From: Eubacteriales bacterium
Lineage (GTDB): Bacteria; Bacillota; Clostridia; Oscillospirales; CAG-272
Length of the DNA stretch: 64,000 nucleotides
Assembly (NCBI GenBank): GCA_045651165.1
Contig: JAZRRX010000039.1
Coordinates: forward strand, 111,448-175,447
Reading direction: 5' to 3'
The notes beneath the pieces are model-generated. The model worked only from the letters and a program-made list of their open reading frames with translations, ran no database searches and was not told the origin of the DNA. Shown piece after piece: positions 21,480 to 51,639 of the stretch (position 1 is its first letter; the number at the start of each line of letters is the position of its first letter). The translations under genes and the position numbers were made by a program.

Positions 21480-21555
21480 CTAGGTGTAGCTCAGCTGGGA
21501 GAGCGCTACCTTGGGGTGGTAGAGGCCGCAGGTTCAAGTCCTGTCACTTAGACCA
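21480..21555 (+). tRNA. tRNA-Pro (anticodon GGG)
   Basis: Hand-folded cloverleaf. Acceptor CTAGGTG/CACTTAG, D-arm GCTC-AGCTGGGA-GAGC, anticodon stem CTACC/GGTAG with loop TTGGGGT, T-arm GCAGG-TTCAAGT-CCTGT, encoded CCA. Confidence 0.85.
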
Positions 21556-34126: not shown

Positions 34127-34825
34127 ATGATCTACGCTTATTGTCGTGTTTCAACTACACATCAAAGAATTGCTAGGCAGATTACCAACATTACTGCCGT
34201 GTATCCAAACGCCACCATTATTCGTGAGTTCTACACCGGAACGAAACAGGACCGCCCTAATTGGAATAAGCTCATGCATATAATTAAAAAGGAAGACACT
34301 ATCGTTTTTGATAGCGTCTCCCGTATGAGCCGTAATGCCGAAGAAGGCTTCAAAGATTACAAGATGCTATATGAATTAGGAGTACATCTCATTTTTCTCA
34401 ACGAACCATTAATAAACACTTCCGTCTTCGACTCAACACGTAATAACCTATTGAGTGTCAATGTCGAAACTGGTAATGAGGCGGTAGATAATTTCTTTAA
34501 AGGAAATATTGAGTTAATCAATAATTTCCTAATGGCACTCGCTGAAGAGCAAATCAAGACCGCATTTGACCAGGCAGAAAAGGAAGTCACAGACCTTCAC
34601 TCAAGAATATCTCAAGGTATCCGAGAAGCTAAGAAAAATGGAACACAGATAGGCCTAGCCAAAGGCACTTCCCTCACAACCAAGAAATCGCTTGATTGCA
34701 TCGCCATCATCAAAAAGCACTCAAAAGATTTCGGTGGTACTCTCGATGACCCTGATGTAATGAAACTCTGCGGTTGCTCCAGAAATTCTTATTATAAATA
34801 TAAAAAGGAAGCAAAGTCAAATTAA
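34127..34825 (+). CDS. Small serine recombinase (resolvase/invertase family)
   Basis: MIYAYCRVSTTHQ (catalytic Ser), VFDSVSRMSRN, C-terminal HTH-like tail; 232 aa. Confidence 0.85.
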   Translation: MIYAYCRVSTTHQRIARQITNITAVYPNATIIREFYTGTKQDRPNWNKLMHIIKKEDTIVFDSVSRMSRNAEEGFKDYKMLYELGVHLIFLNEPLINTSVFDSTRNNLLSVNVETGNEAVDNFFKGNIELINNFLMALAEEQIKTAFDQAEKEVTDLHSRISQGIREAKKNGTQIGLAKGTSLTTKKSLDCIAIIKKHSKDFGGTLDDPDVMKLCGCSRNSYYKYKKEAKSN

Positions 34826-34835
34826 GGAGGACATT

Positions 34836-35030
34836 ATGGACAAGGTTAAAATTGGAGATACCATTAAAATCATCAAAATGGAAGGCGAACCTCACTACAC
34901 CTACCGAGAGGGTGTAGTTACTCACATCGATGACGCAGGTCAAATACACGGAACCTGGGGTGGTTGTGCTATCATTCCATGGGTTGATACTTATATAGTC
35001 TTAAACAATAACATCAAAAAAAGAACTTGA
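34836..35030 (+). CDS. Small DUF4314-like protein
   Basis: IGDTIKIIKMEGEPHYTYREGVVTHIDDAGQIHGTWGG pattern; 64 aa; 10 nt after the recombinase gene. Confidence 0.45.
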   Translation: MDKVKIGDTIKIIKMEGEPHYTYREGVVTHIDDAGQIHGTWGGCAIIPWVDTYIVLNNNIKKRT

Positions 35031-35054
35031 CCATTTGAGTCAAGTTCTTTTTTT
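35015..35054. terminator. Bidirectional terminator
   Basis: A-run, stem AAGAACTTGAC/GTCAAGTTCTT, T-run; between convergent genes. Confidence 0.8.
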
Positions 35055-35060
35055 ACCTTA

Positions 35061-35486
35061 TTAAATTAATATGCCATTACAATGATCCACCTCGTGTTGG
35101 ATGATCTGCGCTGTCCAGCCGGTGTAGGTTTTGATGCGCATTTGCATTTCAAGAGTTTGATATCGCACCTTGATGGTATTATATCGCTTGCACTTGCGTG
35201 GGCCACCGAGTAGCGACAAACAGCCCTCTTCGGTATCGTACGCGCCGTCCTTCTTGATGATTTCGGGATTCAGCATCACGGTGTACGTAGGAGCTCGTCC
35301 GCTCTCGTCGAGAAAGGCGATAATGCGCTTGCGCACACCGATCATATTCGCAGCCATACCGACACAGCTTTCTCTGTGCGCTATCAGCGTGTCGAGCAAG
35401 TCGTGTGCCACCTGCAAATCTTCTTTCGTTGCAACCTCCGACTTTCCTGCAAGAAATATCGGGTCGTGCATTAATTCCTTAATCAT
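35061..35486 (-). CDS. def: Peptide deformylase (short, divergent motif 1)
   Basis: GMAANMIG (variant of GxGxAAxQ), EGCLS, HEVDHCNG; 141 aa. Visibly more GC-rich than its neighbours. Confidence 0.85.
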   Translation of the reverse strand: MIKELMHDPIFLAGKSEVATKEDLQVAHDLLDTLIAHRESCVGMAANMIGVRKRIIAFLDESGRAPTYTVMLNPEIIKKDGAYDTEEGCLSLLGGPRKCKRYNTIKVRYQTLEMQMRIKTYTGWTAQIIQHEVDHCNGILI

Positions 35487-35520
35487 CTCTCGTTACCTTA
35501 CCGTTAATTTCTTGTACTCA

Positions 35521-36198
35521 TCAATTATTAGAATTAGCGATCAAATATTTTTTATTATCGCAATAGTCTTCCATACCTTGAATAATACCCTGTAGAAATC
35601 TAATGATTATGTCTTTAATTGACTCCAAATCAGACAAAGTAAGATCTCTCGCGCACTGACTAAAGCTTTCATCCCCATGTGCCAAAGAATTTCGCTTCTT
35701 TCTTACTTCTTCAAGCTTGTTATCGTCATCAACAACAGTATATCTAATTCTATGATCATCACAAATATGTTTGATTCGCCCTGCGTTTAAATTGCCGTTT
35801 ATGTTGAGCATTCCTTTTTCAAGAATAAAAGGGGCGCTAGTCGTAATATCATCAACGATGTCTTTTACTCTATTGGTATATGTTTTTAATTCTGTTGAAG
35901 ATGAATAAACTTGCTTAACCTTAGCATCTCTCCATATAGTTTGAAGCTCTTGAACCATATTTTTATATGTACAAGAATCATTTTTTATGGATTCATAAAT
36001 TTCCAACATCCCAGTCGATACAGTAGATTCAACCAAATTATATAACATCAAAATAAAATTGGATTTCATTATTTTGAATAGTCGTGCGTTATCTATTGTA
36101 TGTATTGAAGAATTTTCTTTATCTATTTCTACTAAAACAGAATAATAAAATTCTATCTCACCTTTTCTTTCTTCAAAAGTTTCCTTAACGTTAATCAT
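35521..36198 (-). CDS. HEPN-domain nuclease-like protein (MAE_28990/MAE_18760-type)
   Basis: RKKRNSLAHGDESF (R-x4-H HEPN motif); 8-nt overlap with the upstream DUF262 gene. Confidence 0.65.
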   Translation of the reverse strand: MINVKETFEERKGEIEFYYSVLVEIDKENSSIHTIDNARLFKIMKSNFILMLYNLVESTVSTGMLEIYESIKNDSCTYKNMVQELQTIWRDAKVKQVYSSSTELKTYTNRVKDIVDDITTSAPFILEKGMLNINGNLNAGRIKHICDDHRIRYTVVDDDNKLEEVRKKRNSLAHGDESFSQCARDLTLSDLESIKDIIIRFLQGIIQGMEDYCDNKKYLIANSNN

Positions 36199-37234
36199 TT
36201 AACTTACCCAAAAGTATATCCCTTACATACTCAATTCTACCAATTAGTTTGTTTTGATTATTACTTGCATCCGATGTTGTCAAATGCTTAAATTCTTCAG
36301 AATTTATCCAATCCACATTATCAACTGTAAGGTCCGGTTGCTCTCGCAACGCCAAAGCGACGCCAACAGATATTGCTTCAAACCTTACACGTGGGGTTGT
36401 CGAAGCATTTTGTGTTTTGGCAAATCCAAACTCGAAATTTGCATCAACAAACGCTAGCATACGAGCAAATTCTATTTGATATTGTTCTTCATTGAATGTT
36501 TCCATATTATCAATCAAGAAGTCATTCAAAAATCCATTCACCTTATGAACGAAATTTTGGTAGTTGTTTAAATAAGCAAAGAAACGAAGAATAAGTTCAA
36601 AACGTTCTTGTCTCAAATTCTTTCCAGTAGATACAGGACAAAGTCTAATGAAATCAGCATTTTCTGTACAGTTCTCAATGAAGGTAGTTAATGGACCAGG
36701 ATAGGATCCACGGCGCACCTCAGAATCAGTAGCCTTCATTCCCGAAGTGTTGATTCTATTAAACAAATCCTGTCTAACATCAGAAGTTGTCTTTTCATCC
36801 AACACAATAACTCTAAATGCTTTGTTATTGAACTTTCTTTGTTGGGCTTCGGTCAAATCCTTAAACCTAAATCCGTTAAGATATGTCAGCTTTTCTAGAT
36901 TAGAAAGCCTCAATTTATTACTAACGAATTCAACAAGAGTTTGCATTCGTTGTGCACCATCGACTATCTCAAGGCGCCCATCATCACACGCTGCAAAGAA
37001 CATAAAAGGGATAGGCAATCCCAACAAAACAGATTCAATAAACATCGACTTATTTTTAGGACGCCATACGAATTTTCTTTGATATCCTGGAATGAAAAAG
37101 TCTTGCTTGTTAAATTTATCAACCAAATGTTCGATAGTATAATCTTTTGTATCGTATTCAATCTGTTTTTGAAATTCTTTAATTTGAAGCTCGGCTCTTT
37201 CTATTAATTCAGATGTTATTTTAATTCTCGGCAT
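36191..37234 (-). CDS. DUF262 (ParB/GmrSD N-terminal-like) protein
   Basis: PGYQRKFVW and IVDGAQRMQTL (DGQQR-like). Start set to the ATG at 37234 behind GGAGG, overlapping the methyltransferase stop. Confidence 0.75.
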   Translation of the reverse strand: MPRIKITSELIERAELQIKEFQKQIEYDTKDYTIEHLVDKFNKQDFFIPGYQRKFVWRPKNKSMFIESVLLGLPIPFMFFAACDDGRLEIVDGAQRMQTLVEFVSNKLRLSNLEKLTYLNGFRFKDLTEAQQRKFNNKAFRVIVLDEKTTSDVRQDLFNRINTSGMKATDSEVRRGSYPGPLTTFIENCTENADFIRLCPVSTGKNLRQERFELILRFFAYLNNYQNFVHKVNGFLNDFLIDNMETFNEEQYQIEFARMLAFVDANFEFGFAKTQNASTTPRVRFEAISVGVALALREQPDLTVDNVDWINSEEFKHLTTSDASNNQNKLIGRIEYVRDILLGKLND

Positions 37235-38276
37235 TATTGTTAACCTCCACAATATGATTTAGAATTGATTCTCCAATGATTTCGCCTAAACGCACAGGAA
37301 CTGCGTTTCCGATATGTCTTGCAATATCACTAAAAACAAAATTAGTTTCCGGATTAATGAAATTATAATCTGCAGGAAAAGTCTGCAATAATGCTCCTTC
37401 TCTCAAAGACAGAGCTCGATCTTGCTCCGGGTGTCCATATCTGCCCGTGCCATAATTATAAAACTGTGTTGTTATAGTTGGGCCAATCTGTTCCCAAGTC
37501 ATTCTACCATAAACAGAGCAATATGTTTTGCCGCTCTCCTTCTTATGGCATTCGCAGCGTAAATCCTCTGGCCAATCTCGCCAAGATCCTCCTGGCCTAG
37601 AGTGCTGAATTCTTTTTAGATTTAGTGCGTTCAACCCAGCGGCTCTATGCATAGGATCATTTGGATCTGTTTCTCCTGCAGCTATTTGAGGTAGATTTTC
37701 AATAAAATCTCTTACATGAATATCTGCGCTATCGTGCGTAGGTTCAATGATTCTTATCTCACCCAACAACGATCCAACCAAAACGAAACGACGTCGTGTT
37801 TGTGGAATTCCGTAATCAGGACAATAAATAACTTTTGCATCAATTTGATATCCTAAACGTTCTAAAATAGCAAGAAATTCTTGATATACACCTGTTTCTT
37901 TTATTTGAGGTACATTTTCCATCGCAATTACAGATGGATTTGTCTCTTCAATCAATCTTCCAAATTCTAACAACAAATCATACTTGTCGTCCTGTTCATT
38001 TGCATCTCTTAGTTTAAATCTCATCTGTGAGAACGGTTGGCAAGGAGCGCATCCAACTAATATTCTAGTTGCATTTTCGTCATATAGTGCGGCTATTTCC
38101 TCACCTGTAACTTCACGAATATTTTTCAAATGATAATCCACATTATTATTGTGTTCGTAAGTGAATTGGCATGTTGCATCAATGTCAAATCCTGCTATCA
38201 CATTGAGGCCTGCATCAAGTAAACCACGTGTCAATCCTCCAACGCCACAAAATAAATCCACAACTTGTATTGGCAT
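37221..38276 (-). CDS. DNA (cytosine-5)-methyltransferase
   Basis: DLFCGVGG, APCQPFS, ENVPQ, QTRRRF, GNAVPV. Confidence 0.9.
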   Translation of the reverse strand: MPIQVVDLFCGVGGLTRGLLDAGLNVIAGFDIDATCQFTYEHNNNVDYHLKNIREVTGEEIAALYDENATRILVGCAPCQPFSQMRFKLRDANEQDDKYDLLLEFGRLIEETNPSVIAMENVPQIKETGVYQEFLAILERLGYQIDAKVIYCPDYGIPQTRRRFVLVGSLLGEIRIIEPTHDSADIHVRDFIENLPQIAAGETDPNDPMHRAAGLNALNLKRIQHSRPGGSWRDWPEDLRCECHKKESGKTYCSVYGRMTWEQIGPTITTQFYNYGTGRYGHPEQDRALSLREGALLQTFPADYNFINPETNFVFSDIARHIGNAVPVRLGEIIGESILNHIVEVNNNAEN

Positions 38277-38277
38277 C

Positions 38278-38670
38278 TTATTTCCCTCTTAATAATATTA
38301 TTGTTTGATAAAATACAGTTATTGCCTCCGAGGCAAACTCTGCAGTTCCCGCGCCATACTTGTCGATGTTTTTCTTGAATCGCTCATCAGCTACGTACAT
38401 CTTTCCAAGCCCTACGAGAATCTCATCTGTGCAAGTGTAGTAGTTCTCCGTGATATGTGACTGAAGCATGGCAACAAGTGCCTGCGCTTCATCAGAATCG
38501 GCACTCACTCCACTATCCTTGCACACAGCAAACTCGGCAAATATGGCCATCAAATCCTCATTTGCCTCAGCCCACTTCTCTTTTGTGTAATTCTTTGTCT
38601 TTTGCTCGTACTCACGGTAGGGTGAGGTGTTGCCATAGCGCTCACGAGCTTCCGTCTCGTAGTTTTTCAT
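38278..38670 (-). CDS. TipAS antibiotic-recognition domain protein (no MerR HTH)
   Basis: ARERYGNTSPYREY ... GLGKMYVADERFKKNIDKYGAGTAEFASEAI. Start set to the ATG at 38670, since the longer track ORF overlaps the upstream gene. Visibly GC-rich. Confidence 0.75.
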   Translation of the reverse strand: MKNYETEARERYGNTSPYREYEQKTKNYTKEKWAEANEDLMAIFAEFAVCKDSGVSADSDEAQALVAMLQSHITENYYTCTDEILVGLGKMYVADERFKKNIDKYGAGTAEFASEAITVFYQTIILLRGK

Positions 38671-38677
38671 ATCTTTC

Positions 38678-39361
38678 TTATTTAGATCTATCTTTAGTAA
38701 CAAAAACAAACATAACATCAATTACACTTTGAAGATCATCTATAAATATCTCAATATTGTTACGTTTTCTACTACTCATTAATCCGTAAACACTACGTAT
38801 TATCCAAATAATAGCATATATCAAAAACACAATGGCAATCAACCCCAAAACATATCCAATAATATCTTCAATGTTAGTCTGACTTGAAATAAACGTAGTA
38901 ATTATAGCAAGCATTAATGGAATAATCAAAGTTTGCATCCATTTGTCAATTTTATCACTTTGCTGCCTTTTGAGTGCATCTTGCTTTTCCAAATCGTGCG
39001 CTAGGCGTGATTTGATTAATTCTATATCTTCTTGTGTAGTTATAGAGTATTCGGACAACCAATTGTATAAATCGTGAGCCGATGTTCTAAAATCATCATA
39101 ATGTTCGCGACTATACTTAATTTTCCACTTCTCTTGAACCCAATAAAGTATAAAAGCAACAGTTGCTTCTATAAAAGTAAGTATATAAAACCACTCGTTA
39201 ATACCAATAGCAAAAATATTAATAATACTTGCTACAAAGCATAAAACAGCCAATATTAGTAGCACAATAATATACCACGGTATTTTCTTGATAGCATTAG
39301 TAAATGATCCACTATGGTCTTTTTGATATTTCAAATAACTATTTAGCAAATGATACTCCAC
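38678..39361 (-). CDS. Four-TM membrane protein, uncharacterised
   Basis: Two N-terminal and two C-terminal hydrophobic helices flanking a charged helical segment (SRLAHDLEKQDALKRQQSDKIDKW). Confidence 0.55.
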   Translation of the reverse strand: MEYHLLNSYLKYQKDHSGSFTNAIKKIPWYIIVLLILAVLCFVASIINIFAIGINEWFYILTFIEATVAFILYWVQEKWKIKYSREHYDDFRTSAHDLYNWLSEYSITTQEDIELIKSRLAHDLEKQDALKRQQSDKIDKWMQTLIIPLMLAIITTFISSQTNIEDIIGYVLGLIAIVFLIYAIIWIIRSVYGLMSSRKRNNIEIFIDDLQSVIDVMFVFVTKDRSK

Positions 39362-39397
39362 TATGAATCTCCTTTTTGTTATGTTATTAAGAAACCA

Positions 39398-40336
39398 TTA
39401 TACGATAGTTTCCTTTATTTTTTCAGCAATCCTTCTAATTACAGGCACAACAACACTATTCCCACATTGCTTGTATGCACTTGCCATAGGTATCTTAGGG
39501 AAACGATATTCTTTAGGAAAACCTTGTAAGGCCAAGCACTCATATGGCGTAATTTTTCTGATACCGCAATCATCTCTAATTATTGGAACCCTATCAGGAA
39601 AAGTTCCCATATTGGCAGTCAGTGTTGGGCATACGTAATGCGCCTTTCTTGATACGCCCGAATCGTAAATCTTATATAGCGCATCTTTATTGTCAATAAT
39701 TCTTTGCAAATCCTCATAATAAACACTACTATCTGTGTAATAATAGCTCTTATCGTGTTTGGCGTTTCTTACCAATATGTCATTCAACTTGGTTGTTAAC
39801 TTAATCTTTTCAGGAAACTCAAATCTATCACACTGGTCGTTTTCAAGAAATGCCACAATGTAGATGCGTGTACGATGCTGAGGTATATTACTATACTCTA
39901 TCGCATCCATGACTCTATATTTGAACGTATAACCATAAGGAACAAGTGCATTATATATGGTTAAGAATGTCTTTCCATCGTCATGTTCTAATAGATTTGC
40001 AACATTTTCAAGGAAGATGACCGGCGGACGCTTGTCCTTAACAATTCGCGCAATCTCAAAGAACAAGTTTCCGCGCGGATCATCGAATCCTTTTTGCTTG
40101 CCTGCTATAGAGAACGGTTGGCATGGAAAGCCGGCAACAAGCACGTCAAAATCGGGGATATCCTCACTTTTGACACTTCTAATATCGCGTTCAACTAAGT
40201 GCTCTCCGCCGAAATTATGACGATATGTTCTTGCGGCATCACGATCAAATTCGTTTGCCCAAACAATTTCAAATCCTGCTTGCTGGAAGGCTAAATCTAT
40301 TCCCCCAATGCCGCTAAATAGGCTACATACTCTCAT
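39398..40336 (-). CDS. DNA (cytosine-5)-methyltransferase
   Basis: SLFSGIGG, FPCQPFS, ENVANL, QHRTRIY, GNSVVVPV. Confidence 0.9.
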   Translation of the reverse strand: MRVCSLFSGIGGIDLAFQQAGFEIVWANEFDRDAARTYRHNFGGEHLVERDIRSVKSEDIPDFDVLVAGFPCQPFSIAGKQKGFDDPRGNLFFEIARIVKDKRPPVIFLENVANLLEHDDGKTFLTIYNALVPYGYTFKYRVMDAIEYSNIPQHRTRIYIVAFLENDQCDRFEFPEKIKLTTKLNDILVRNAKHDKSYYYTDSSVYYEDLQRIIDNKDALYKIYDSGVSRKAHYVCPTLTANMGTFPDRVPIIRDDCGIRKITPYECLALQGFPKEYRFPKIPMASAYKQCGNSVVVPVIRRIAEKIKETIV

Positions 40337-41604
40337 TTCTCTACAGCTTTTCCTATATCTTCAATAAGTTTCGTAATATCCTCAGTGCAATTTCCTTGCG
40401 ACCAAACAGAAATCAAGTGTTTAGTATCAATTAAAAATGCACATATACGTGTATGAGATAACGCATCGTTTCTCCAATTAGCTTCTGAATATCCGATATA
40501 TTCAAGGTCGGAATCATATCCAAATGGATTATTTGCTCTATTATAAGGCATTACAAATGCATTGTACACATATGTTATATTCTCTTTCTTTTGCAAATTA
40601 CAAATTATATTATCACCATACGTAATTTGCTTTTGAATAGAGGTTGTTGTCGGCAAATCGCTTTCATTACCCGTTGTTCCGAAACGATAAAACTTAGCAT
40701 CAAGAACATATGCTACCTTCTCATCTGTGCTAGAATCGCTAGAAATCGGCTCTAACCTAATGGTGTCAGGTCTCAAAGAAGAAGCATCTTTAGGAGCGTA
40801 TGCGTTTTTCTTCAAGTACCATTTGGCATTAGGATTATACTTAGTTATGTCTGTAACATTACTGAAAACATAATCCACCATACGCTCGTATACATAATGA
40901 TACTTATCCACACCATACACAATCTCTCTCGTTCTATCAGAGTCATCAACGCCTGTAAGAACTCGCAACATGTGATTTAAACGAATCTTTTTTACATCAT
41001 CAAAGGTACGCGTGAGTTCTGTTTTAATAGCTCGGATATACTTTTTCAGTACAGAGTCCACAGTTCTTGCAACAAAGACACTCTTTTCGTTTAATCCGAA
41101 CAACCACCCGATTTTACGAACAGAATCGAACACACACCACTTATGTGCTTCGGTTATAATGTCGTCGCAATCGTTGCGCACTTCAACAATAACGTTATTA
41201 TAAATAATATTACCATTAGAGATGATCGGCTGCGTTTCTAATGTCTTTTTCCAATTTACCTTTCCCTTACCGTTGGTACGGTAGATTTTTTCACTATTTC
41301 GATAGTATCCATTAGAAAGATAATCTCTAATAATCCACAGATATGACCTTATGGCGAACTGATCGTTTTGAGCAACACCATTGTCGTTGTTGAAGCTGAT
41401 ATTAGCTTTACTTTTGGCCAACGAAATTGTTCGGATGATATTTACTACATCATGTCTAAAAGCCTTTTTATCTTCTTGTTTTGCTAAATGATATGATTCA
41501 GGGTAATGAAAATGAATTTCTCCGTTTCTTATGCGAAGACCGACAAAAGAGTTTTGTTCTTCATTGGTAACCGAATGAAGAATTATCTTCTTATCATCAT
41601 TCAT
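40333..41604 (-). CDS. LlaJI-type / McrC-like restriction endonuclease subunit
   Basis: Overlaps the McrB-like gene by 8 nt. AYVLDAKFYRFG ((D/E)xK-type core); size and position match an LlaJI R2 / McrC partner. Start set to the ATG at 41604 behind GAGGG. Confidence 0.65.
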   Translation of the reverse strand: MNDDKKIILHSVTNEEQNSFVGLRIRNGEIHFHYPESYHLAKQEDKKAFRHDVVNIIRTISLAKSKANISFNNDNGVAQNDQFAIRSYLWIIRDYLSNGYYRNSEKIYRTNGKGKVNWKKTLETQPIISNGNIIYNNVIVEVRNDCDDIITEAHKWCVFDSVRKIGWLFGLNEKSVFVARTVDSVLKKYIRAIKTELTRTFDDVKKIRLNHMLRVLTGVDDSDRTREIVYGVDKYHYVYERMVDYVFSNVTDITKYNPNAKWYLKKNAYAPKDASSLRPDTIRLEPISSDSSTDEKVAYVLDAKFYRFGTTGNESDLPTTTSIQKQITYGDNIICNLQKKENITYVYNAFVMPYNRANNPFGYDSDLEYIGYSEANWRNDALSHTRICAFLIDTKHLISVWSQGNCTEDITKLIEDIGKAVEK

Positions 41605-44203
41605 TGTTTCCCTCTTCTTCTGCACTTACGGCAGCTCTAGCCTCAAATATACCTGTTTTGAAAACGCCTACTCCACCTGTTTTATATGCGTCAATAAGGT
41701 TTTCTAAAGTGTCATACGGATTGAAGAAGATACCGTGATCAAGCTTAGCTACATCGCTCCACAGGTAGTCAAATACCTTATATGCAAACTTTTCAGCGTC
41801 ATTACTTGCCAAAAGATTTTCTTTTACAAAGAACGCTCCAATCTGCTTATCCTCATTGACCTGAAGATCTTCCAAATGCCTTGCAATACATTTATTGATA
41901 CTTGTAACAAACTCTTCCCAAGTGTACTGTATCATTCCCGGAACAGGCATAGCTTTAAATTTGCAATTTTTAAAGGAATTCTTAATCTTTTCCTTATCCC
42001 AACGACGAACAAATGCGGTATCTAACGTATAGACATTTTGGTCACTTGTGTTCATAGTTGCAAAGATATCCATATTACCAGGAATTTTAATTTCGCTGAA
42101 AGTATAACGCTTCTTTTCCCCATCAACTATAAACTCATAAGCATTGAGATAATCTATCATGCTGACATTGACAATCCCATATTCACTGATGCTGTTTTCA
42201 TCTCTATCCAAAAGTTGGAATATGTCTCCGAAAATGGCAGGAGCATTTCCTCTGTTGATTTCTTCAATAACAAGAGCAACCTTTTTACTAGGATTACTGA
42301 TTGCCTGAATCAATGCAAGAGTGAACGGACCGGGGTTGAATATGTACTCAACAGTATCTTTCTCTCCGTTTCTTCCTTTAACCACCTTAGGAAGAATCTG
42401 ACCAACAAAATCAGTATTAGAATAATCCTGATAGAAAGTGGTTCGAATTACTCTTTCATTACTATATGGGTCAACGTATTCCTTGGTAACTTTATCCTTA
42501 CCTAAAATATCGTGCTCAATGTGATACGATTTTCCACAACCAGGTGTACCAAAGAATATCTTGTTGATTCCTGATCCAACGGTAGTCTTATAGTCAAAAT
42601 CAGTTGCCGGAATTACCTGTTCGGGCTCATGGAAATGAATACCATACTCATTATCTCTTACAGACTTATAGATGCTAATTCCCTTATTAACTTCTACATG
42701 ATAAGAATTTTGTAATCTAGAAGCTTTAACTATTTGAGTTGCGGTATATCCTTTACTAATGATTATCGCGGCATACTTGAAGCCAAACATATGAATAGCA
42801 GTTGTCTTGTTATCTGCAGCATCATACATATCAGAAAGGATTTCTGCCAACTCTTCAACGGTATAATCTTTTCCGATATCATCCGCCTCAAGTTCTATAT
42901 CTTCTTCAATTAACAAAGATTCATCTTTGACGTATGTGCCATTCAATAAATCGTTAACTGCCGATTTATAATCGTTGAGTCTGAAAACAGACATAGCAGC
43001 ACCCAAAGAGTTTTGGAAGACTTCCGACAAATCGCTCTTGCGAATATCCTTTTTAAGCCACTCAACATCTCTAACGTTAACGTAATCCGGATCTTGGTTT
43101 GCGTTTTGTGCATTATCAAAGTAATAATCTGAAGCTATGCGACCAATATGACAAGTGTCACCATTAGAGAATACAACGTAGTCGCCAATTTGCATTTCCT
43201 TAACAAAACGCCAAATCTGACCCAAATCCTGAGCCTTTTTTCTTACTTTTTCGTTAGGATAGGCAGATTCATATCTTGAATCAAGATCTTCCCTCGTGGT
43301 AATGTCGGATATGTCCCCTATCTTAGACCAACCAATACAGATGTGAGGCTTAGTATCAGATAAAGCATCATTCTGAAGTTTGATATGCATACCGTAAAGA
43401 TCATGAACAAAAACATCATCGCACAACGAATTATTGGAATCACCAGTCGAATTTTCAATATCCATATAATTCTCATATGAAGATCTATTAGTCACATAAT
43501 TTTGATTAGGATCTGGTGACCAAAAACGAGTGTATGTCAATATATCAAACAATACCGCTTTATTATCTGTGGTCAGATTATCATGCTCTATGTATAGCTC
43601 TTGACGTTCATTTTCAGATATACATCCCGAATACAAAAGGAGCTTTACCATTTCACGAATTTGACGGTCTTCATGTTTCCAAATTCTTTTATCAGGATCT
43701 ATCTCTACTGTTGTAGGTAGGGTTCCTGTTTTTCTGTATTCTATAATCTGCTGTGCCAACTCTACGATATTAGGAGTTTTACTTTTTGCAACTACACTGT
43801 TATAGAAAAAGAAATGCAGTATTTCATCACGTGTCAAATGAGCAGCACCCGGGTATAACATATGCATGTTGTAAAGAACTTGTAAAACTAATCTCATGGG
43901 TGCAATGGTAATACCATCATTAAATGCATCCAACATAGACTCTTGGGTGCGTGGATTGGGAAATTGGAATTTTTTAATAAAATTCAACACAACTTTTCTT
44001 ACATTCCCATTCTGACACTCCTTGGCACAATTGCTTGTTGATGTTAGATTGAAATAGAAGCCAAGCGTCTTCATATTGTTATTTTCACTTTTATCTTCAC
44101 TGGCAGATGGAACTGTATCTGTAACAAAGCATGTGCCAGCTTTTGTTAAGGCAGACTGCAAGCTAGATATTCTCAAATCATTCGTAAATAAATAGTGATA
44201 CAT
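41597..44203 (-). CDS. McrB-like AAA+ GTPase restriction subunit with long N-terminal extension
   Basis: FFGTPGCGKSY (Walker A), LVIEEINRGNAPAIFGDIFQLLDR, ATMNTSDQNVYTLDTAFVRRW; about 520 aa precede the NTPase core. Confidence 0.85.
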   Translation of the reverse strand: MYHYLFTNDLRISSLQSALTKAGTCFVTDTVPSASEDKSENNNMKTLGFYFNLTSTSNCAKECQNGNVRKVVLNFIKKFQFPNPRTQESMLDAFNDGITIAPMRLVLQVLYNMHMLYPGAAHLTRDEILHFFFYNSVVAKSKTPNIVELAQQIIEYRKTGTLPTTVEIDPDKRIWKHEDRQIREMVKLLLYSGCISENERQELYIEHDNLTTDNKAVLFDILTYTRFWSPDPNQNYVTNRSSYENYMDIENSTGDSNNSLCDDVFVHDLYGMHIKLQNDALSDTKPHICIGWSKIGDISDITTREDLDSRYESAYPNEKVRKKAQDLGQIWRFVKEMQIGDYVVFSNGDTCHIGRIASDYYFDNAQNANQDPDYVNVRDVEWLKKDIRKSDLSEVFQNSLGAAMSVFRLNDYKSAVNDLLNGTYVKDESLLIEEDIELEADDIGKDYTVEELAEILSDMYDAADNKTTAIHMFGFKYAAIIISKGYTATQIVKASRLQNSYHVEVNKGISIYKSVRDNEYGIHFHEPEQVIPATDFDYKTTVGSGINKIFFGTPGCGKSYHIEHDILGKDKVTKEYVDPYSNERVIRTTFYQDYSNTDFVGQILPKVVKGRNGEKDTVEYIFNPGPFTLALIQAISNPSKKVALVIEEINRGNAPAIFGDIFQLLDRDENSISEYGIVNVSMIDYLNAYEFIVDGEKKRYTFSEIKIPGNMDIFATMNTSDQNVYTLDTAFVRRWDKEKIKNSFKNCKFKAMPVPGMIQYTWEEFVTSINKCIARHLEDLQVNEDKQIGAFFVKENLLASNDAEKFAYKVFDYLWSDVAKLDHGIFFNPYDTLENLIDAYKTGGVGVFKTGIFEARAAVSAEEEGNNE

Positions 44204-44204
44204 A

Positions 44205-45419
44205 TTATAACTCTCCTATCAACTCAAAAATTGCATTGGCGATTGCTTTTGCCAACATTGGAGGAACTGCATTTCCAATCATCTGATATGCTCCTCCTCT
44301 GCTAGCAACAAATTCAAAATCGTCTGGGAAGGATTGTAATCGTGCGGCCTCTCGCACAGTTATTGTACGTTGCTGCTTTGGATCATAATGAATAAAGCGA
44401 TTACCATCTTTATATAAATGTGCGATTATTGTTGTGCTAGGTTCATCCGGGGCAAGAACATGATATCTATGAATAGGCGACTTAGAACCAATTTTCTGTT
44501 CATAAAGCTCACTAATTTTTTTGCTATCATATTCGAATTTGCCAGAAGAAACATCTTCAGCCAATAACCTAAATGTATCCATATCACGCAAGTTGCTATA
44601 ACGGGGAGTATGCCATGAAACATTTGATATGGGAGTAGAGTGAGAGACTCTCTTGCTATGATGTTCCAAATCAAAATATGGTTCACATGGTGGTAAATCA
44701 CCGATAGCCTCTTGTACTGTAACCTTTTTTTGACCTTTATATTTCGGCAACAACTCAGTATAAAATTTATTCAGCAACGATTGAATATCTGTGTTCAAAT
44801 CCTTTCTGACACCAACAATTACTACTCGATTGCGGTTTTGTGGTACATTATAATCACTCGCATTTACCACAGCTCGATGCAAATCATCTATAATCTCATA
44901 GCCAATTCCATCAAATCCGCTCTTGATAAGATCTGTTATTGGAGTTCCATTAGGAGTTGCGCTTAAGATCCCCGGTACGTTTTCGAAAACAAACAGTAAG
45001 GGGCGATAACGATTTACCACGCTTAAATAATGTTCAAATAAGTAATTGCGATAATCGTTTTTCATGCCATTTTCGTCTCTAACTCGTCCAGCAATCGAAT
45101 ACGCCTGGCATGGTGGTCCTCCAATGATAATATCAATACCACCCACCGCATTAACATAATGATCTAATCCTTTATTAGAGCCATACTCACAGTCATTCCA
45201 GCCGCCAAATAACTCTGCTTCACGCTGTATGTCAAAACGCATTACACTTTCATTAGCATGGGAAATATTCCAATGTGTCAGTAATCTGTGTCTCAATGTA
45301 TCTATTTGAGGTCCTAACCACTCAACTGCCGCAACCTCGCTATAATGACCAGTTTGCAAAAAACCCTCTGTCAAACCGCCACATCCAGCGAAAAGGTCTA
45401 TCATTTTAATCTTTGACAT
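44205..45419 (-). CDS. DNA (cytosine-5)-methyltransferase
   Basis: DLFAGCGG, GPPCQAYS, FENVPG, QNRNRVV, GNAVPPML. Confidence 0.9.
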   Translation of the reverse strand: MSKIKMIDLFAGCGGLTEGFLQTGHYSEVAAVEWLGPQIDTLRHRLLTHWNISHANESVMRFDIQREAELFGGWNDCEYGSNKGLDHYVNAVGGIDIIIGGPPCQAYSIAGRVRDENGMKNDYRNYLFEHYLSVVNRYRPLLFVFENVPGILSATPNGTPITDLIKSGFDGIGYEIIDDLHRAVVNASDYNVPQNRNRVVIVGVRKDLNTDIQSLLNKFYTELLPKYKGQKKVTVQEAIGDLPPCEPYFDLEHHSKRVSHSTPISNVSWHTPRYSNLRDMDTFRLLAEDVSSGKFEYDSKKISELYEQKIGSKSPIHRYHVLAPDEPSTTIIAHLYKDGNRFIHYDPKQQRTITVREAARLQSFPDDFEFVASRGGAYQMIGNAVPPMLAKAIANAIFELIGEL

Positions 45420-45420
45420 T

Positions 45421-46491
45421 TTATTCTTTCTCCAGATAAGGAATTAATTGTTGTGCAACTACATAACCCAACATAGGAGGTACCGCATTGCCAACTTGAC
45501 AATATTGCTCAGCCTTGCTACCATAAAATATAAAATCGTCAGGGAAACTTTGCAATCTAGCACTCTCTCGAACCGTAGGAATTCTATTCCATTTGTAATG
45601 AAAATGAGAACGATGACCAGTGTTTATTGTAAGAGACGGCTTTTTACTATGATATCTAGTTAGTGCTTCGTGATACTTAAATCTTGCACTCAATTCAGGA
45701 GGTAACGCTTTGTAATTTTTGCCTTCCGGAATAAGCTTGAGTAACGCAACAGTCTTTTCCTCATGAATGCTTCCAATATGATTATATATTTTTTTGGAAT
45801 TACATCTCATTTTCTCTTGGTATGAACTTAACGGAGGACATTCATAGTCTTGAACTTCTTCTCCATATATTCCCTCTAGTGCCGGTAAATCTCCAATGGC
45901 TTGCTCGCATGTTATATATTCTTCAGGTGCAAAGCGAGGACTAGGAAATTCAAAATTGATTTTCGAATCTAACAATCCGACAAAAAATACTCGTTTACGA
46001 ATTTGTGGAACGCCATAATCGGGGGCATATAAAATCTTGGCATTCATTCGATAACCCAGAGCTGAGAAATCTTCTATAATTCGTTTGGCACCAATACCAT
46101 CGTTAGTTTGAATCATTCCAGGAACATTTTCCAAAACCACGGCTTTAGGTTGAAGAATTTGTGCCAATTTTACCATCGCTAAATAAAGCGAATTACGTTT
46201 ATCGTTCATATCACGTGGTCCTGCGATAGAAAAACCTTGACAGGGGGGGCCACCCACAAGAACATCAAGATCAATATTTCTCTCGCGTAAGTAATCCACA
46301 ATTACATTGATATTATCATGATTAAATAAATCTAATTTCATCGCTTCGGCCGAACCGTGATTTGCTTTAAATGTACGCAAAGCTGCATCATCAAAATCAA
46401 CGCCTAAAACCACATCATATCCGGCATCCAAAAAGCCTCGCGACAAACCGCCCGCGCCAGAAAACAAATCTACAACTTTTAATTTGCTCAT
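45421..46491 (-). CDS. DNA (cytosine-5)-methyltransferase
   Basis: DLFSGAGG, GPPCQGFS, LENVPG, QIRKRVF, GNAVPPML. Confidence 0.9.
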   Translation of the reverse strand: MSKLKVVDLFSGAGGLSRGFLDAGYDVVLGVDFDDAALRTFKANHGSAEAMKLDLFNHDNINVIVDYLRERNIDLDVLVGGPPCQGFSIAGPRDMNDKRNSLYLAMVKLAQILQPKAVVLENVPGMIQTNDGIGAKRIIEDFSALGYRMNAKILYAPDYGVPQIRKRVFFVGLLDSKINFEFPSPRFAPEEYITCEQAIGDLPALEGIYGEEVQDYECPPLSSYQEKMRCNSKKIYNHIGSIHEEKTVALLKLIPEGKNYKALPPELSARFKYHEALTRYHSKKPSLTINTGHRSHFHYKWNRIPTVRESARLQSFPDDFIFYGSKAEQYCQVGNAVPPMLGYVVAQQLIPYLEKE

Positions 46492-46502
46492 ATCAATCCA
46501 CC

Positions 46503-46718
46503 TCAGCCTTCTTTGGAAGGAATTATATCCATGATCTCATCCACTGTACAGCCCAATGCAGTACATATCTTCACCAATACATCACTGGATACAGTAGCCC
46601 CATCTTTTTTCATCTTCGCAAGCGTAGTAGGACTAATTCCTGCCTGTGCAGCAAGGTCTTTATTCTTAATCTCGCGATCAATCATTAATTTGAATAGTTT
46701 CTTATAGCTAGCAGCCAT
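46503..46718 (-). CDS. XRE-family HTH protein (candidate R-M controller)
   Basis: 71 aa; KNKDLAAQAGISPTTLAKMKKDG HTH; first gene of the methyltransferase/restriction block. Confidence 0.75.
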   Translation of the reverse strand: MAASYKKLFKLMIDREIKNKDLAAQAGISPTTLAKMKKDGATVSSDVLVKICTALGCTVDEIMDIIPSKEG

Positions 46719-46749
46719 GTTTTCACCTCAAATAATTTAAATAATAAAA

Positions 46750-46771
46750 ATATACTATAGTAAAAGTATAT
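46750..46771. promoter_or_regulatory. Candidate controller-protein operator
   Basis: ATATACT-N8-AGTATAT inverted repeat containing the ACTATAGT palindrome; 32-53 nt upstream of the HTH gene start. Confidence 0.35.
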
Positions 46772-46892
46772 CACAACTTGCGTCATAAATCAACATTATT
46801 TGAAAAATAATTCGCGATGTTGAAATATTTTTCACTATAGCCATATGTATTTCATAACGGCAAATCGACTACTTGAAGCTGTAAGTTCAGGC

Positions 46893-46935
46893 TGTTACGC
46901 AATCACGCAAACTTTGTTACGCAGGCTGTTACGCA
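46893..46935 (+). repeat. Triple TGTTACGCA module B
   Basis: TGTTACGCA at 46893-46901, 46915-46923 and 46927-46935, plus a partial TCACGCA at 46903-46909. Spacing of 22 and 12 nt matches module A. Confidence 0.6.
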
Positions 46936-47029
46936 AGGCTATTTGATAAAGCAAAAGCGTACCATCAGAATCGTTTAGATTCTGTGGCACGCTCTGTCTA
47001 AAAGCTGTGCGATAAAGCTGGAAAAGGCG

Positions 47030-47103
47030 ATCTAGGTGTAGCTCAGCTGGGAGAGCGCTACCTTGGGGTAACTATGACCGCAAGTTCAAGAGTTTGACCA
47101 GCT
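47030..47103 (+). pseudogene. tRNA-Pro-derived att remnant: perfect 5' half fused to a divergent 3' half
   Basis: 47030-47069 is 40/40 identical to 21478-21517. The downstream AACTATGACCGCAAGTTCAAGAGTTTGACCAG cannot pair with the anticodon or acceptor stems, though GACCGCAAGTTCAAG resembles the T-arm GGCCGCAGGTTCAAG. Confidence 0.8.
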
Positions 47104-47224
47104 GAATTACACCTAATATATCGTTTATCCTATGTATTTTATCCTATTTATTAAGATTATTTTATTACTATTCCCTGCTACGCAATTTGAGTTATCCATT
47201 CCAAAAGAATTCAATAGTAATATC

Positions 47225-47255
47225 AAAAAAGACGACCGCGTGGTCGTCTTTTTTT
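47225..47255. terminator. Bidirectional terminator after the Fic gene
   Basis: A-run, stem GACGACC/GGTCGTC, T-run; overlaps the Fic stop codon. Confidence 0.75.
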
Positions 47256-48141
47256 AGTATTTGATTCTATAATAATCTAAACGCAATTTGAAGTTATCCT
47301 GCGCTGAAAGACAGGTATCAACGAGGTATCCGCGCTCACGGGTCCATTCTTTAAGTCCGCGATAATAAAAGAGCTTGTGCTTCTCGTCAATGATAAATGG
47401 TACGATATTATTCTTCAAGCACTCCTTGAACATAATCAATCGACCGACACGACCGTTTCCGTCTTGGAACGGGTGAATTTTCTCAAAACGCACGTGAAAT
47501 TCAATTATATCCTCAAGTGTTACGTTCTCAATCGCGTTGTACCAAGCCAAAAGGTTTTTTATTTCTTTTGAAACTTCTTCCGGCAGGGTAGTATCCATAC
47601 CGCCAACTTCATTTGGCAGTTTCTTGTATTCACCTACCGCAAACCAATCCTTGCGACTATCACTTGTGCCACTCTTGAGCAAAGAATGAAGCTGCTTAAT
47701 CACAGTTTCACTCAAGCTCGCATTTGCCTTGTCGATGATAAAATCAATACAACGGAAGTGGTTAGTTGTTTCAATGATATCGTCAACGCGCACCGCCTCA
47801 TCAACAATTCCGATGGTATTTGTTTCAAAAATGTATCTCGTCTGGTCGTGGGTCAAACGGCTTCCCTCAATGTGATTGGAATTGTAAGTCAAATCAACTT
47901 GCACTCTATGATAAATGCCGCCACGAAGTTTCGTCTTCTTTTCTTCCTTCAAAATATCAAGCAAAGTGTTGGAAGCATCTTCCCTTTTCTTGCGCACGGG
48001 TTTTTCGGCATCTTCTGGAATCTTCCAAGTCTTGCCCTCAAGGATTGCCCCTGCAACACGACCTTCCGCGCAATAATTTCTCACTGCGCGCTCGGACATC
48101 CCCCACTTTTTCGCAATTTGGACAACTGAAATGTAATTCAT
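47254..48141 (-). CDS. Fic-family protein with N-terminal HTH
   Basis: HPFQDGNGRVGRL (canonical Fic motif) and N-terminal VVQIAKKWGMSERAVRNYCAEGRV HTH. Confidence 0.9.
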   Translation of the reverse strand: MNYISVVQIAKKWGMSERAVRNYCAEGRVAGAILEGKTWKIPEDAEKPVRKKREDASNTLLDILKEEKKTKLRGGIYHRVQVDLTYNSNHIEGSRLTHDQTRYIFETNTIGIVDEAVRVDDIIETTNHFRCIDFIIDKANASLSETVIKQLHSLLKSGTSDSRKDWFAVGEYKKLPNEVGGMDTTLPEEVSKEIKNLLAWYNAIENVTLEDIIEFHVRFEKIHPFQDGNGRVGRLIMFKECLKNNIVPFIIDEKHKLFYYRGLKEWTRERGYLVDTCLSAQDNFKLRLDYYRIKY

Positions 48142-48249
48142 AATATCACCTCCAACATCTATCGGTAATATTATACCACATTATAGGCAAAATATCAATA
48201 TATTTTGTAAAAATATACGCGAGTTATTTTGCCGATAATTAACAGTAAT

Positions 48250-48277
48250 AAGGCAAGACCGAAATCGGTCTTGCCTT
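48250..48277 (-). terminator. Hairpin downstream of the protease gene (weak terminator)
   Basis: Stem AAGGCAAGACC/GGTCTTGCCTT; only a weak U-tract on the minus strand. Confidence 0.4.
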
Positions 48278-48350
48278 CATTTGGTGTTTAAATTTCACCC
48301 ATATAGTAATTAATAATTTCAAATGCAATTGATATGTATAATAATACATT

Positions 48351-49193
48351 TTACTCCTCTGTTATTGCTTCAATTGCATCAGTTTCCACTTTAGTTTCAA
48401 GTGTTTTTACCCTTAAATACTCAGACTCAATAGTATCTTTTATTGAATCAACATCATACGCAACAGCTATCCCGCTATTTTCTTGCAAAACTTGCATTGT
48501 TTTACCGGTTTTTTTGCTAATAAGTTCTTCCATATATGGAATGTATCCTGCTATTATACCCACTAAACGTGTAGCATTGTAATGTTTAGTTCCTTGAAGA
48601 TGATTTGATTCAATTCTATTTATTATAGGACTACCTGAACTACCAGGAAAATTCTGTATATCCAACAAATAGCCGTTTTCTCCATATGGTTCTTTTATTT
48701 TGGAAACACATCCCATTCTACATAATGGTATTTTAGAATCTACTCCTACTAATCCAGAAGGAAATCCTAACATATATACAATAGTCCCTTCAACAACATC
48801 GTGTTCTATCATTTGTTCACGTGTTAACGCATGTTCATCCAAAACAAATGCACTAACGCTTCCGATAGTCTTATTTAGCACAGAACCATTAAGTAATATG
48901 CATCCAACATCAGCTGTTGGATGAACAGAAAAAATATCATTACCATTTCCATCTTGCAAATCTAAGAGTAAATCTTTTGCATCAGTTTTACCGGAAATGT
49001 TAAAACGAAGGAATACATTAGTTAATCGAGATTCTAACACATGTTTATTTGTAATTAAAAATGCATTATACACTCCATACTCATTTTTTCTAACAACAAT
49101 AAACCCTGTTGCTATCCACTTCTTTTCATTATTTTGATCATTTATACCGATTGCCACAACGGCATCGCTGAAAAATTGGGGAATGATTGCCAT
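48351..49193 (-). CDS. Trypsin-like (S1 family) serine protease, cytoplasmic
   Basis: LITNKHV (His) and FPGSSGSPIINR (Ser); no signal peptide; GGAGG RBS. Confidence 0.75.
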   Translation of the reverse strand: MAIIPQFFSDAVVAIGINDQNNEKKWIATGFIVVRKNEYGVYNAFLITNKHVLESRLTNVFLRFNISGKTDAKDLLLDLQDGNGNDIFSVHPTADVGCILLNGSVLNKTIGSVSAFVLDEHALTREQMIEHDVVEGTIVYMLGFPSGLVGVDSKIPLCRMGCVSKIKEPYGENGYLLDIQNFPGSSGSPIINRIESNHLQGTKHYNATRLVGIIAGYIPYMEELISKKTGKTMQVLQENSGIAVAYDVDSIKDTIESEYLRVKTLETKVETDAIEAITEE

Positions 49194-49314
49194 AAAAATT
49201 ATCCTCCTATATTATTTGATGATAATAGATGTTCTGAAATATTGTGGTTTTCACCGTAAAACCGAGTTGGGTCTTGCCTTAGTATTAGTTTTAATTAGAA
49301 AATCTCTTGTTAGG

Positions 49315-49631
49315 GCAACTCGGGGCGTATTTTTAGTACAGCGCCCGGAGTTGCTATATGTGCGTTCAGCGATATGTTTTTAGTACGGTATCGGAAACGG
49401 TTCATTATGTATCAAGCTCAGCGAAGTGTTTTTAGTACAGCTTCGGGAGCATGTGGCGCTCAGCGGTGGGTTTTTATTACGTCACCGGGAGCGCGTGTAA
49501 GATTTTCCATTTTAGGATTTGAGCAAGCACGCGGCAGCTCGATTATTTAGTTCGCTCAACGAAGTGTTTTTATTACAACTTCGGGAGCGTGTGGCGCTTA
49601 ACGATGGATTTTTAGTATGTCATCGAGAGCC
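49315..49631. repeat. Tandem array of six to seven ~42-nt stem-loops with conserved loop TTTTTA(G/T)TA(C/T) and covarying stems
   Basis: Units at 49315-49354, 49363-49399, 49416-49450, 49456-49494, 49553-49589 and 49593-49631, plus a degenerate unit near 49521-49552. Inner stems are CGATA/TATCG, CGAAG/CTTCG, CGGTG/CACCG, CGAAGT/ACTTCG, CGATG/CATCG. Conserved TGTG linker. Strand of any transcript is unknown. Confidence 0.85.
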
Positions 49632-49654
49632 ATTGTATAGCTTTATATTTTTTG

Positions 49655-50077
49655 TTAAGTTTTATTTTCAATGGTATCAGTAATTACATCAACTGTACCA
49701 TCAGTGCCTGTTACCTCAAGCGTAAACGTTGCACGATATGTACCGGAACCGTTAAGGGACATTTCATGATAAAATATACCATCAAGATCAGTAGAAGTTG
49801 AGGTCCACGTGCCAACATCATTCCAAAAAGCAAAAAGAAATCTTTTTTCAACTTTAACCGTTAATTTTGCACTAACAAAGCTTGGGGAATACCCTGTATA
49901 ATTTGCATAGATATATCCAACAGAACTTGTAGCATCAAAAGAAAAGGATGCGCCGCCAATATGTGACAAACGCGGCATCACCTGGTTTTCCGATTCTGCC
50001 GCGCAAACAGGAATGCTCGTCAAACACATAAGTATTGACATCAGAATTAAAATGATTGATTTGATTGTTTTTTTCAT
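49655..50077 (-). CDS. Small secreted protein
   Basis: Signal peptide MKKTIKSIILILMSILMCLTSIPVCAAE. Start set to the ATG at 50077 behind GAGGTG. Confidence 0.6.
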   Translation of the reverse strand: MKKTIKSIILILMSILMCLTSIPVCAAESENQVMPRLSHIGGASFSFDATSSVGYIYANYTGYSPSFVSAKLTVKVEKRFLFAFWNDVGTWTSTSTDLDGIFYHEMSLNGSGTYRATFTLEVTGTDGTVDVITDTIENKT

Positions 50078-50169
50078 AACTTTCACCTCTAAAATATAAA
50101 AATTTGAGTATTTTTTATATACTCTACATTATACTACCCATTTTTTTGACAAAATTCTTCAAATTTTCA

Positions 50170-50210
50170 CAAAAAAAATAAAAACACCTCAAATTGTATA
50201 ATTTGTGGTG
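50170..50210 (-). terminator. Terminator after the anti-sigma-like gene
   Basis: Stem CACCTCAAATT/AATTTGTGGTG (one mismatch), with a long T-run on the minus strand. Confidence 0.7.
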
Positions 50211-50220
50211 TTTTGTATGT

Positions 50221-51433: not shown

Positions 51434-51639
51434 TGGTATTCCCTTTCAAATTGATTATTTGACAAAATTATACCATAAATGACATATATATTCAATATTT
51501 TCTACATAAAAACCGCAAAATAAGTAATTATTTGAAGAATTTTATTTAATAAATAGGTAATATATATGTGTTTTTTCGGACATAAGTACTATTTGTATTT
51601 TTCTCACTCTCCAATTTTTTGAAGAAAGGAGGTGATGAA

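Follow-up and report, generated by a model that had tools for sequence, protein, structure and literature searches.

A conserved hairpin array lies directly downstream of one small secreted-protein gene in uncultured gut Clostridia

Reiterated hairpins occur in several described bacterial systems. In the CsrB/RsmZ RNAs, several hairpins carry the same conserved unpaired motif, a repeated GGA in the loops, on stems that vary, and copy number differs among relatives; these RNAs are stand-alone genes with their own promoter and terminator, and they have a CsrA-like partner. Type III toxin-antitoxin arrays (ToxI, CptI, TenpI) are short, near-identical tandem repeats with a fixed period of ~34–45 nt, placed upstream of a conserved ToxN/AbiQ-type toxin gene. 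REP/BIME elements and the pneumococcal BOX are imperfect palindromes that cluster after genes, are able to stabilise the upstream mRNA and exist in tens to hundreds of dispersed copies. Integron attC sites retain a structure and a few unpaired bases while their stems vary, with exchangeable single-gene cargo adjacent to them, and guanidine-II (mini-ykkC) riboswitches are tandem small hairpins in 5′ leaders, with covarying stems and invariant loops that are ACGR tetraloops. Here, from comparison of related loci, we describe a strongly conserved and previously undescribed non-coding element found, in a group of uncultured gut Clostridia, always after the same small secreted-protein gene.

The element lies at positions 49315–49631 of the window, the whole 64-kb stretch of DNA that was analysed, and comprises six hairpin units that can be read from the sequence, flanked by the features listed below.

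48252–48279, no strand assigned: full closing hairpin GGCAAGACCGAAATCGGTCTTGCC, found directly after the array in other loci and displaced here by a 1-kb protease insert
49258–49280, no strand assigned: half copy (right arm) of the closing hairpin, 23 nt, 83% identical, left by the insertion of the S1-protease gene
49281–49314, minus strand: conserved spacer from the closing hairpin to H1, T-rich on the window plus strand, defined by the block alignment
49315–49354, minus strand (the strand of the adjacent gene): hairpin H1 (unit 1), outer stem GCAACTC/GAGTTGC, G/G internal loop, inner stem GGGCG/CGCCC, loop TTTTAGT; 43.1 bits
49363–49399, minus strand: hairpin H2 (unit 2), CGTTC/AAACG, AG/G internal loop, CGATA/TATCG; 53.9 bits
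49416–49450, minus strand: hairpin H3 (unit 3), GCTC/GAGC, AG/G internal loop, CGAAG/CTTCG; 54.6 bits
49456–49494, minus strand: hairpin H4 (unit 4), GCGCTC/GAGCGC, AG/G internal loop, CGGTG/CACCG; 61.9 bits
49497–49552, minus strand: remnant of the spacer after H4, carried along by the duplication; not a unit
49553–49631, minus strand: units 5 and 6, a diverged tandem copy of H3–H4 (110-nt repeat, 76% identical)
49655–50086, minus strand: secreted-protein gene (signal peptide and Ig-like β-sandwich), stop codon 24 nt from the array; the sole constant neighbour
50130–50164, minus strand: ECF-type promoter-like motif TGAAGAATTTTG-N11-GGGTAGTAT, upstream of the secreted-protein gene
50171–50213, minus strand: canonical intrinsic terminator, a hairpin with a long U tract, after the anti-sigma gene

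Searching the 64 kb with the pattern YARCGNNNNNTTTTTAKTAYNNNNNCGRGAG and at most three mismatches returned exactly six matches, with 0 expected, all of them array units, and a covariance model built from 51 units (filters off, E ≤ 10) detected the same six only, at 43–62 bits. The six units and their stems had been proposed in a first-pass annotation of this DNA, and sequence, pattern scan and covariance model all agree with that proposal. Single units fold with z scores of −3.3 to −4.9 relative to shuffles, on either strand. The annotation's impression that the array is richer in GC than its surroundings was borne out by computation (0.47–0.48, against 0.25–0.39 in the flanks). A scan of 49200–49660 found no terminator-like site on either strand, in agreement with the view that the hairpins are not terminators; intrinsic terminators pair a GC-rich hairpin with a U tract, and at this locus only the closing hairpin has a T tract, on its plus side.

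Other details did not hold. The units are 63–70% identical to a reference unit, are separated by 2–16 nt where contiguous and show start-to-start spacings of 52, 42, 96 and 42 nt. Positions 49404–49513 and 49542–49651 form a 110-nt tandem duplication, 76% identical, so that units 5 and 6, the latter the most divergent of all units in the data set, are a local duplication of units 3 and 4 together with the spacer that follows them. A degenerate unit had been proposed near 49521–49552, within this carried-along spacer; it lacks the loop motif, escapes the unit model at E ≤ 10 and folds like its shuffles (z = −0.95 and −1.87). The supposedly conserved TGTG linker is present at only three of five junctions, and orthologues carry GTAGG, GTGGG or GTGG in its place.

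To define the unit, we used a gapless alignment over 42 columns of 51 distinct units from 25 loci. Read on the window plus strand, a unit has an outer stem of 5–6 bp, an internal loop of AG opposite G and an inner stem of 5 bp. Above these, after one or two unpaired bases, a 2-bp apical stem closes a 7-nt loop, TTTTAKT, which is found in 51/51 units. The first description, a stem-loop with a conserved loop, was therefore right in outline, whereas its 10-nt loop is really a covarying 2-bp apical stem closing the TTTTAKT heptamer. Over the 51 units, 85% of cells pair on the proposed structure, compared with 72% after column shuffling and 35–49% when the partners are slid; changes occur on both sides in 11 of 13 pairs, with a covariation score of 0.45 versus 0.21. 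The excess of pairing and the double changes support the original argument that compensatory stems around a conserved loop reflect selection on a folded single strand. The inner pairs 12–31 and 13–30 switch freely (GC 25 / AU 24, and UA 27 / AU 13 / GC 6 / CG 4, respectively), and the apical pairs covary as well (G-C to A-T, GC 41 / AU 7; T-A to C-G, UA 39 / CG 11). Invariant or near-invariant columns are gathered in two patches, one in the apical loop (T18–T21, A22 and T24) and one at the internal loop, in the context CG...CGGG (C10, G11, C32, G33, G34 and G35). Such a distribution is the signature of a hairpin that is read at two places by something sequence-specific.

Alignment of related loci delimited a syntenic block of ~260 nt, usually consisting of four hairpins and a closing 13-bp stem-loop. 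The four hairpins, H1–H4, are paralogous and each has its own orthologues, and the first-hairpin region comes in two architectures; the units are neither equivalent to one another nor regularly spaced. In type A (the window, L008, L002, L027 and L035) H1 is a simple hairpin, orthologous among these loci. In type B (L004, L006, L007, L012, L014, L021, L033, L036 and L043) the same outer stem, GGCAAC/GTTGCC, surrounds two hairpins that resemble units together with a further small one, and the region forms a multi-helix junction. Through duplication and loss, the number of units ranges from three (L018) to six (the window and L033). Small open reading frames across the type B arrays were rejected, as their frames are not common to type A.

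The two architectures can be exchanged between near-identical genomes. L035 (5380–5700, type A) and L036 (5380–5730, type B) are at least 99% identical on both sides and differ in architecture over ~150 nt; identical flanks around different types point to allelic replacement by a short recombination tract over the H1–H2 block. In the same pair, the final 60 nt of the secreted-protein gene show a raised density of single-nucleotide differences. Block identity among loci of one type is 85–93%, and the adjacent secreted-protein gene is 62–84% identical overall and 27–74% at fourfold sites. On these values the block either is constrained much more strongly than the preceding gene or has been homogenised repeatedly by recombination; in neither case is this repeat DNA undergoing decay.

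We scanned 185,579 species, each represented by one genome, with a strict unit pattern. The scan recovered five Clostridia/Eubacteriales MAGs from animal guts, with one locus each, plus three isolated chance matches, and a scan of metagenomes contributed one further locus. The pattern matches L001, L003, L005, L009–L011 and L013 from the genome and metagenome scans were solitary and formed no hairpin, and were discarded. Viral contigs returned one chance match to the pattern and nothing relevant, and a blastn search with the array as query found no match in collections of phages or plasmids. In all true matches the gene that ends just before the array is a homologue of the one in the window encoding the 143-aa secreted protein. 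This protein has 222 close homologues; contigs were fetched for seven, and in every contig reaching far enough an array was present 24–35 nt past the stop codon. Altogether, every clade locus examined (25 distinct sequences) has the block after the stop codon of this one gene, once per genome and always in direct orientation. A covariance-model search of 204 kb of related contigs gave 105 hits, all within array blocks. Dispersed copies of REP/MITE type, the alternative that the first-pass annotation had raised, are thus lacking from the 64-kb window and from these 204 kb, where units occur in arrays only. The annotation had also presented the array as an element upstream of the S1-protease and Fic genes; across loci the constant neighbour is instead the secreted-protein gene, and the other side varies.

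No recognised RNA class accounts for the array, as first supposed. Rfam 15 searched over the whole window at gathering thresholds assigned no family to it; the only match in the window at that threshold is a tRNA gene at 21480–21552 (61 bits). With the array region and a type B locus as queries at E ≤ 10, nothing exceeded 20 bits, and for the array region no antitoxin RNA family appeared, the only hits being chance snoRNA matches outside the array. A tRNA-like reading of the 7-nt loop was dropped when ARAGORN found no tRNA-like gene. The unit sequences had no match in the first 200 of the 408 supplementary files of a human-microbiome structured-RNA catalogue (PMC8040213). Guanidine-II riboswitches share the tandem small hairpins, covarying stems and invariant loop, but the present hairpins follow a stop codon, have 7-nt loops and number three to six. 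The units are also diverged and lack spacers, unlike CRISPR arrays with their identical repeats and unique spacers of similar length, and on this point the first reading was correct.

The secreted-protein gene belongs to a module with a divergent DUF6514 gene, with or without an HTH gene, an ECF-type sigma factor of 182 aa, a DUF4367 anti-sigma factor of 220 aa and the secreted protein of ~140 aa, followed by the array and then the 13-bp stem-loop CCAAGGCAAGACC-loop-GGTCTTGCCTTGG. The 35-nt motif upstream of the secreted-protein gene recurs at 51530–51564 on the plus strand, upstream of the DUF6514/HTH gene, with the shared form TGAAGAATTTTG-N11-GGGTAnTAT, and is kept in all related loci; the module's ECF sigma factor probably recognises it as its cognate promoter. 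The −10 part of this promoter, GGTAnTA, shares about six bases with the gene-strand loop CGTAmTAAAA, an AT-rich likeness that we put down to chance, and pairing of the loops with the 5′ UTRs of module mRNAs was rejected for want of conservation. For the secreted protein, modelled at pLDDT 89, the predicted fold was a generic Ig-like sandwich with no informative match, and the DUF6514 model (pLDDT 82) has no significant match in the PDB. A literature search turned up nothing on DUF6514 and, on DUF4367, one unrelated paper. Among these leads, the DUF6514 and secreted-protein models, none emerged as a candidate binding protein for the hairpins.

The terminator at 50171–50213 sets the secreted-protein gene and the array apart as a separate transcription unit. 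The stop codon and the array have no terminator between them, so transcription of the gene presumably continues through the array on the gene strand. We tentatively favour, as one possibility among several, a reading in which the block is the structured 3′ tail of the secreted-protein mRNA, on the gene strand, and serves as a multivalent docking platform for a sequence-specific factor. The module's ECF-type sigma factor would fire the promoter at 50164–50130, and RNA polymerase, meeting no terminator, would read through the 140-aa gene into the four hairpins (six in the window). Each hairpin would display two conserved patches separated by roughly one helical turn, namely the AG/G internal loop with its CG/CGGG flanks and the apical loop of 7 nt, with the helix between them free to vary. 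The presence of the same two patches on every hairpin leads us to propose that the tail docks one trans-acting factor many times over. Such a factor, if it exists, would most likely be a protein, and the tail might titrate it or might use it to control the fate of the mRNA and the downstream transcript, in the manner of CsrB/RsmZ. The range of three to six units fits redundant binding modules, and the type B multi-helix junction with its two embedded hairpins, an RNA-like architecture, speaks for an RNA tail. Three observations stand out against it, namely the folding advantage of the plus strand, the excess of wobble pairs favouring that strand and the side on which the closing hairpin bears its T tract. 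The lack of a candidate partner among the fold models and the absence of the element from more distant modules also weigh against it.

CsrB/RsmZ is the closest working analogy to such a tail, with its several hairpins, one conserved unpaired motif, variable stems and differing copy number. The likeness to these sponges drawn in the first-pass annotation is reasonable as a possible mode of working; it is not evidence of family membership. The loops here carry UUUUAKU (AMUAAAA on the gene strand) in place of GGA, and the array adjoins the 3′ end of a protein-coding gene instead of standing alone. It also has a second conserved patch, at the internal loop. We would provisionally class the element as a reiterated-hairpin bacterial RNA element, unusual in its high conservation and in its position beside a slot for the exchange of defence genes; the function given to it is one that we infer. 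If it is RNA, it would add to the bacterial RNA motifs a new one under unusually strong constraint, with conservation far exceeding that of the preceding protein gene, and its reiterated recognition hairpins would predict an RNA-binding partner in uncultured gut Clostridia.

Evidence on the strand points both ways. The plus strand might instead encode an independent non-coding RNA, convergent with the secreted-protein mRNA and partly antisense to it, with loops UUUUAKU and AG/G internal loops; we consider this unlikely, though it has several observations in its favour. The plus strand folds 16–24 kcal/mol better than the gene strand in 7/7 loci tested, and alifold energies are likewise lower (−58 versus −46, and −72 versus −61), whereas z scores against shuffles are better for the gene strand (−6.9 versus −3.9). 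Wobble cells also favour the plus strand, with 24 G·T against 7 A·C, including mid-stem G·U pairs in H4 of L004, L007 and L014 and a GC–GU–AU path at pair 14–29, but they reduce to only ~9–10 versus 6 independent events, and the intermediates in the apical stem are of the A·C type. The internal loops are purine-rich on the plus strand. A U-rich tract follows H4, but starts 8–9 nt from the stem.

The closing hairpin bears on the same question. Its T tract (TTTGTTGTTTTT; for example at 5682–5709 in L014) is on the array-facing, plus side in all loci, and its stem shows a compensatory change in L033 (GGCGAGAC/GTCTCGCC). With the tract on this side, the hairpin resembles a terminator for transcription entering from the variable island, not for the secreted-protein mRNA, which is left with no canonical 3′ end. 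A plus-strand RNA would thereby be insulated from island transcription by the hairpin and U tract upstream of it, and a terminator just upstream is the usual layout before an sRNA gene. Against this stands the lack of a conserved promoter between the closing hairpin and H1: the candidate plus-strand hexamers there, TTGCCT and TAGAAA, are 16 nt apart in type A but 14 nt apart in type B and were rejected for this inconsistency, and a scan of the interval returned nothing. Neither flank of the array yielded a promoter, nor did the gene strand yield a canonical terminator.

It is also conceivable, if improbable, that the array is a passive 3′ barrier without a specific partner, which protects against 3′–5′ exonucleases or insulates the operon from its variable neighbours, as REP elements do. 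Stable hairpins in a 3′ UTR that borders a variable region are in keeping with such a role. However, a passive barrier leaves unexplained why loop and internal-loop nucleotides are invariant in 51 units despite changing stems, and why the whole block is 85–93% identical. REP and BOX elements resemble the array in being imperfect palindromes clustered after genes, but the present element has a single locus in each genome, keeps a direct orientation throughout and can be matched to its orthologues hairpin by hairpin. No RAYT (IS200/IS605-like) transposase was seen among the ORFs scanned.

On its far side the array borders a region of exchange. Left of the closing hairpin, loci have nothing in common, and gene content changes exactly at the hairpin foot; the genes found there include Mrr, a type I restriction-modification system (HsdM), KwaA/KwaB, Fic, unknown proteins of 440 and 711 aa, SASP, an acetyltransferase and a rhamnosidase. 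In the window this side is occupied by a defence island of ~15 kb (34127–49193) that ends at the array. It contains a serine resolvase at its far end, a HEPN protein, GmrSD_N, four C5 methyltransferases, an HTH_26 protein and a restriction system made up of an LlaJI endonuclease and a McrB-like 868-aa protein. Fic and the S1 protease also belong to this island. The S1 protease has a Trypsin_2 domain, and PADLOC places both it and Fic in candidate single-gene defence families (PDC-S45, 4e-22, and PDC-S04, 1e-114, respectively).

The S1-protease gene sits between the full (48252–48279) and half (49258–49280) copies of the closing hairpin. In L012 the same slot, between hairpin copies at 330–357 and 1333–1359, holds an unrelated gene of 269 aa (BLASTP E = 0.23), and beyond the slot the window and L012 share the same Fic gene with its promoter. 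The bracketed position thus looks like a slot for the exchange of single genes. The loop sequences of the two hairpin copies differ, which shows that they are not a fresh target-site duplication. Given the variable neighbours and the protease as an insert, protease and Fic are not functional partners of the array; they are interchangeable cargo of the defence island.

These observations could also be taken to mean that the array acts as DNA, its hairpins, extruded or single-stranded, marking a hotspot for recombination or insertion of defence genes in the way of attC, a reading that we hold to be quite unlikely. It would accommodate the switch in gene content exactly at the closing-hairpin foot, the single genes bracketed by hairpin copies in the window and L012, the H1–H2 allelic swap between genomes otherwise at least 99% identical, the serine resolvase at the far end of the island and the mixed wobble evidence between strands. 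Yet none of the loci has a recombinase next to the array, array units are not separated by cassettes, and what is repeated on either side of the cargo is the closing hairpin, not a unit; RNA is indicated by the multi-helix junction of type B and by the asymmetry of the internal loops. The resemblance to attC extends to the conserved structure and a few conserved unpaired bases, the variable stems and the exchangeable single-gene cargo alongside, but the locus has no integrase, no R/L core sites and no cassettes between units, and its cargo is bracketed by a separate 13-bp closing hairpin. No IntI tyrosine recombinase was found near the array, where the neighbours are sigma, anti-sigma, DUF6514 and HTH genes; the sole recombinase is the serine resolvase, 15 kb away.

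The fixed site of the array between an ECF sigma-controlled gene and a hotspot of defence-gene replacement raises the question of whether it feeds envelope stress into cargo expression or is a mere insulator. As a speculative extension to which we attach little probability, the block might be a read-through or anti-termination RNA (put/EAR-like), or an equivalent control point, through which an ECF sigma factor that senses the envelope is tied to a plug-in slot for single-gene anti-phage systems. Cargo inserted between the array and the closing hairpin would be co-oriented with the sigma-dependent promoter, as may be the case for the S1 protease (PDC-S45) here and for the unrelated 269-aa gene in L012, and passage of the sigma signal on to the defence cargo would depend on the conserved RNA. 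In the window, half of the hairpin is deleted, and the interval from the secreted-protein gene to the protease gene is left with no terminator-like site.

An antitoxin-like or regulatory RNA array for the S1 protease or Fic, in the style of type III toxin-antitoxin systems, is highly improbable: short tandem units do lie directly upstream of a minus-strand gene in the window, and protease and Fic match PDC-S45 and PDC-S04, but the array persists beside Mrr, HsdM, KwaA/B, SASP, acetyltransferase, rhamnosidase or unknown genes, the protease is an insert between hairpin copies, and the units, 63–70% identical and irregularly spaced at 42–96 nt, have no ToxI-like match in Rfam. The likeness to type III systems suggested initially, short tandem units beside a protein gene in a defence-rich region, is refuted by the comparative data and fails on each defining feature: the units are diverged and irregularly spaced, the downstream gene is variable and not a ToxN-family endoribonuclease, and the constant neighbour is upstream and secreted. 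Comparison of loci in this way corrects a tempting but wrong link of the array to the neighbouring protease and Fic genes.

The secreted-protein family as a whole is far broader than the set of genes followed by arrays, with 295 clusters at 50% identity. We examined more distant modules whose protein is 37–51% identical to a reference homologue (P0127), itself 45% identical to the window protein. The unit model found no match in these modules, in which the secreted-protein gene is followed, after gaps of 45–230 nt, by HTH and DUF6514 genes or by an RHS toxin gene. We take the element to be a recent, clade-specific addition, and its absence from more distant versions implies that it is not needed for the basic function of the module. 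In L058 (3430–7852), the gene 45 nt past the secreted-protein gene encodes a 2138-aa RHS/YD-repeat protein with an AHH nuclease domain, and in L051–L055 a PycTM/cyclase (Pycsar-like) pair lies nearby.
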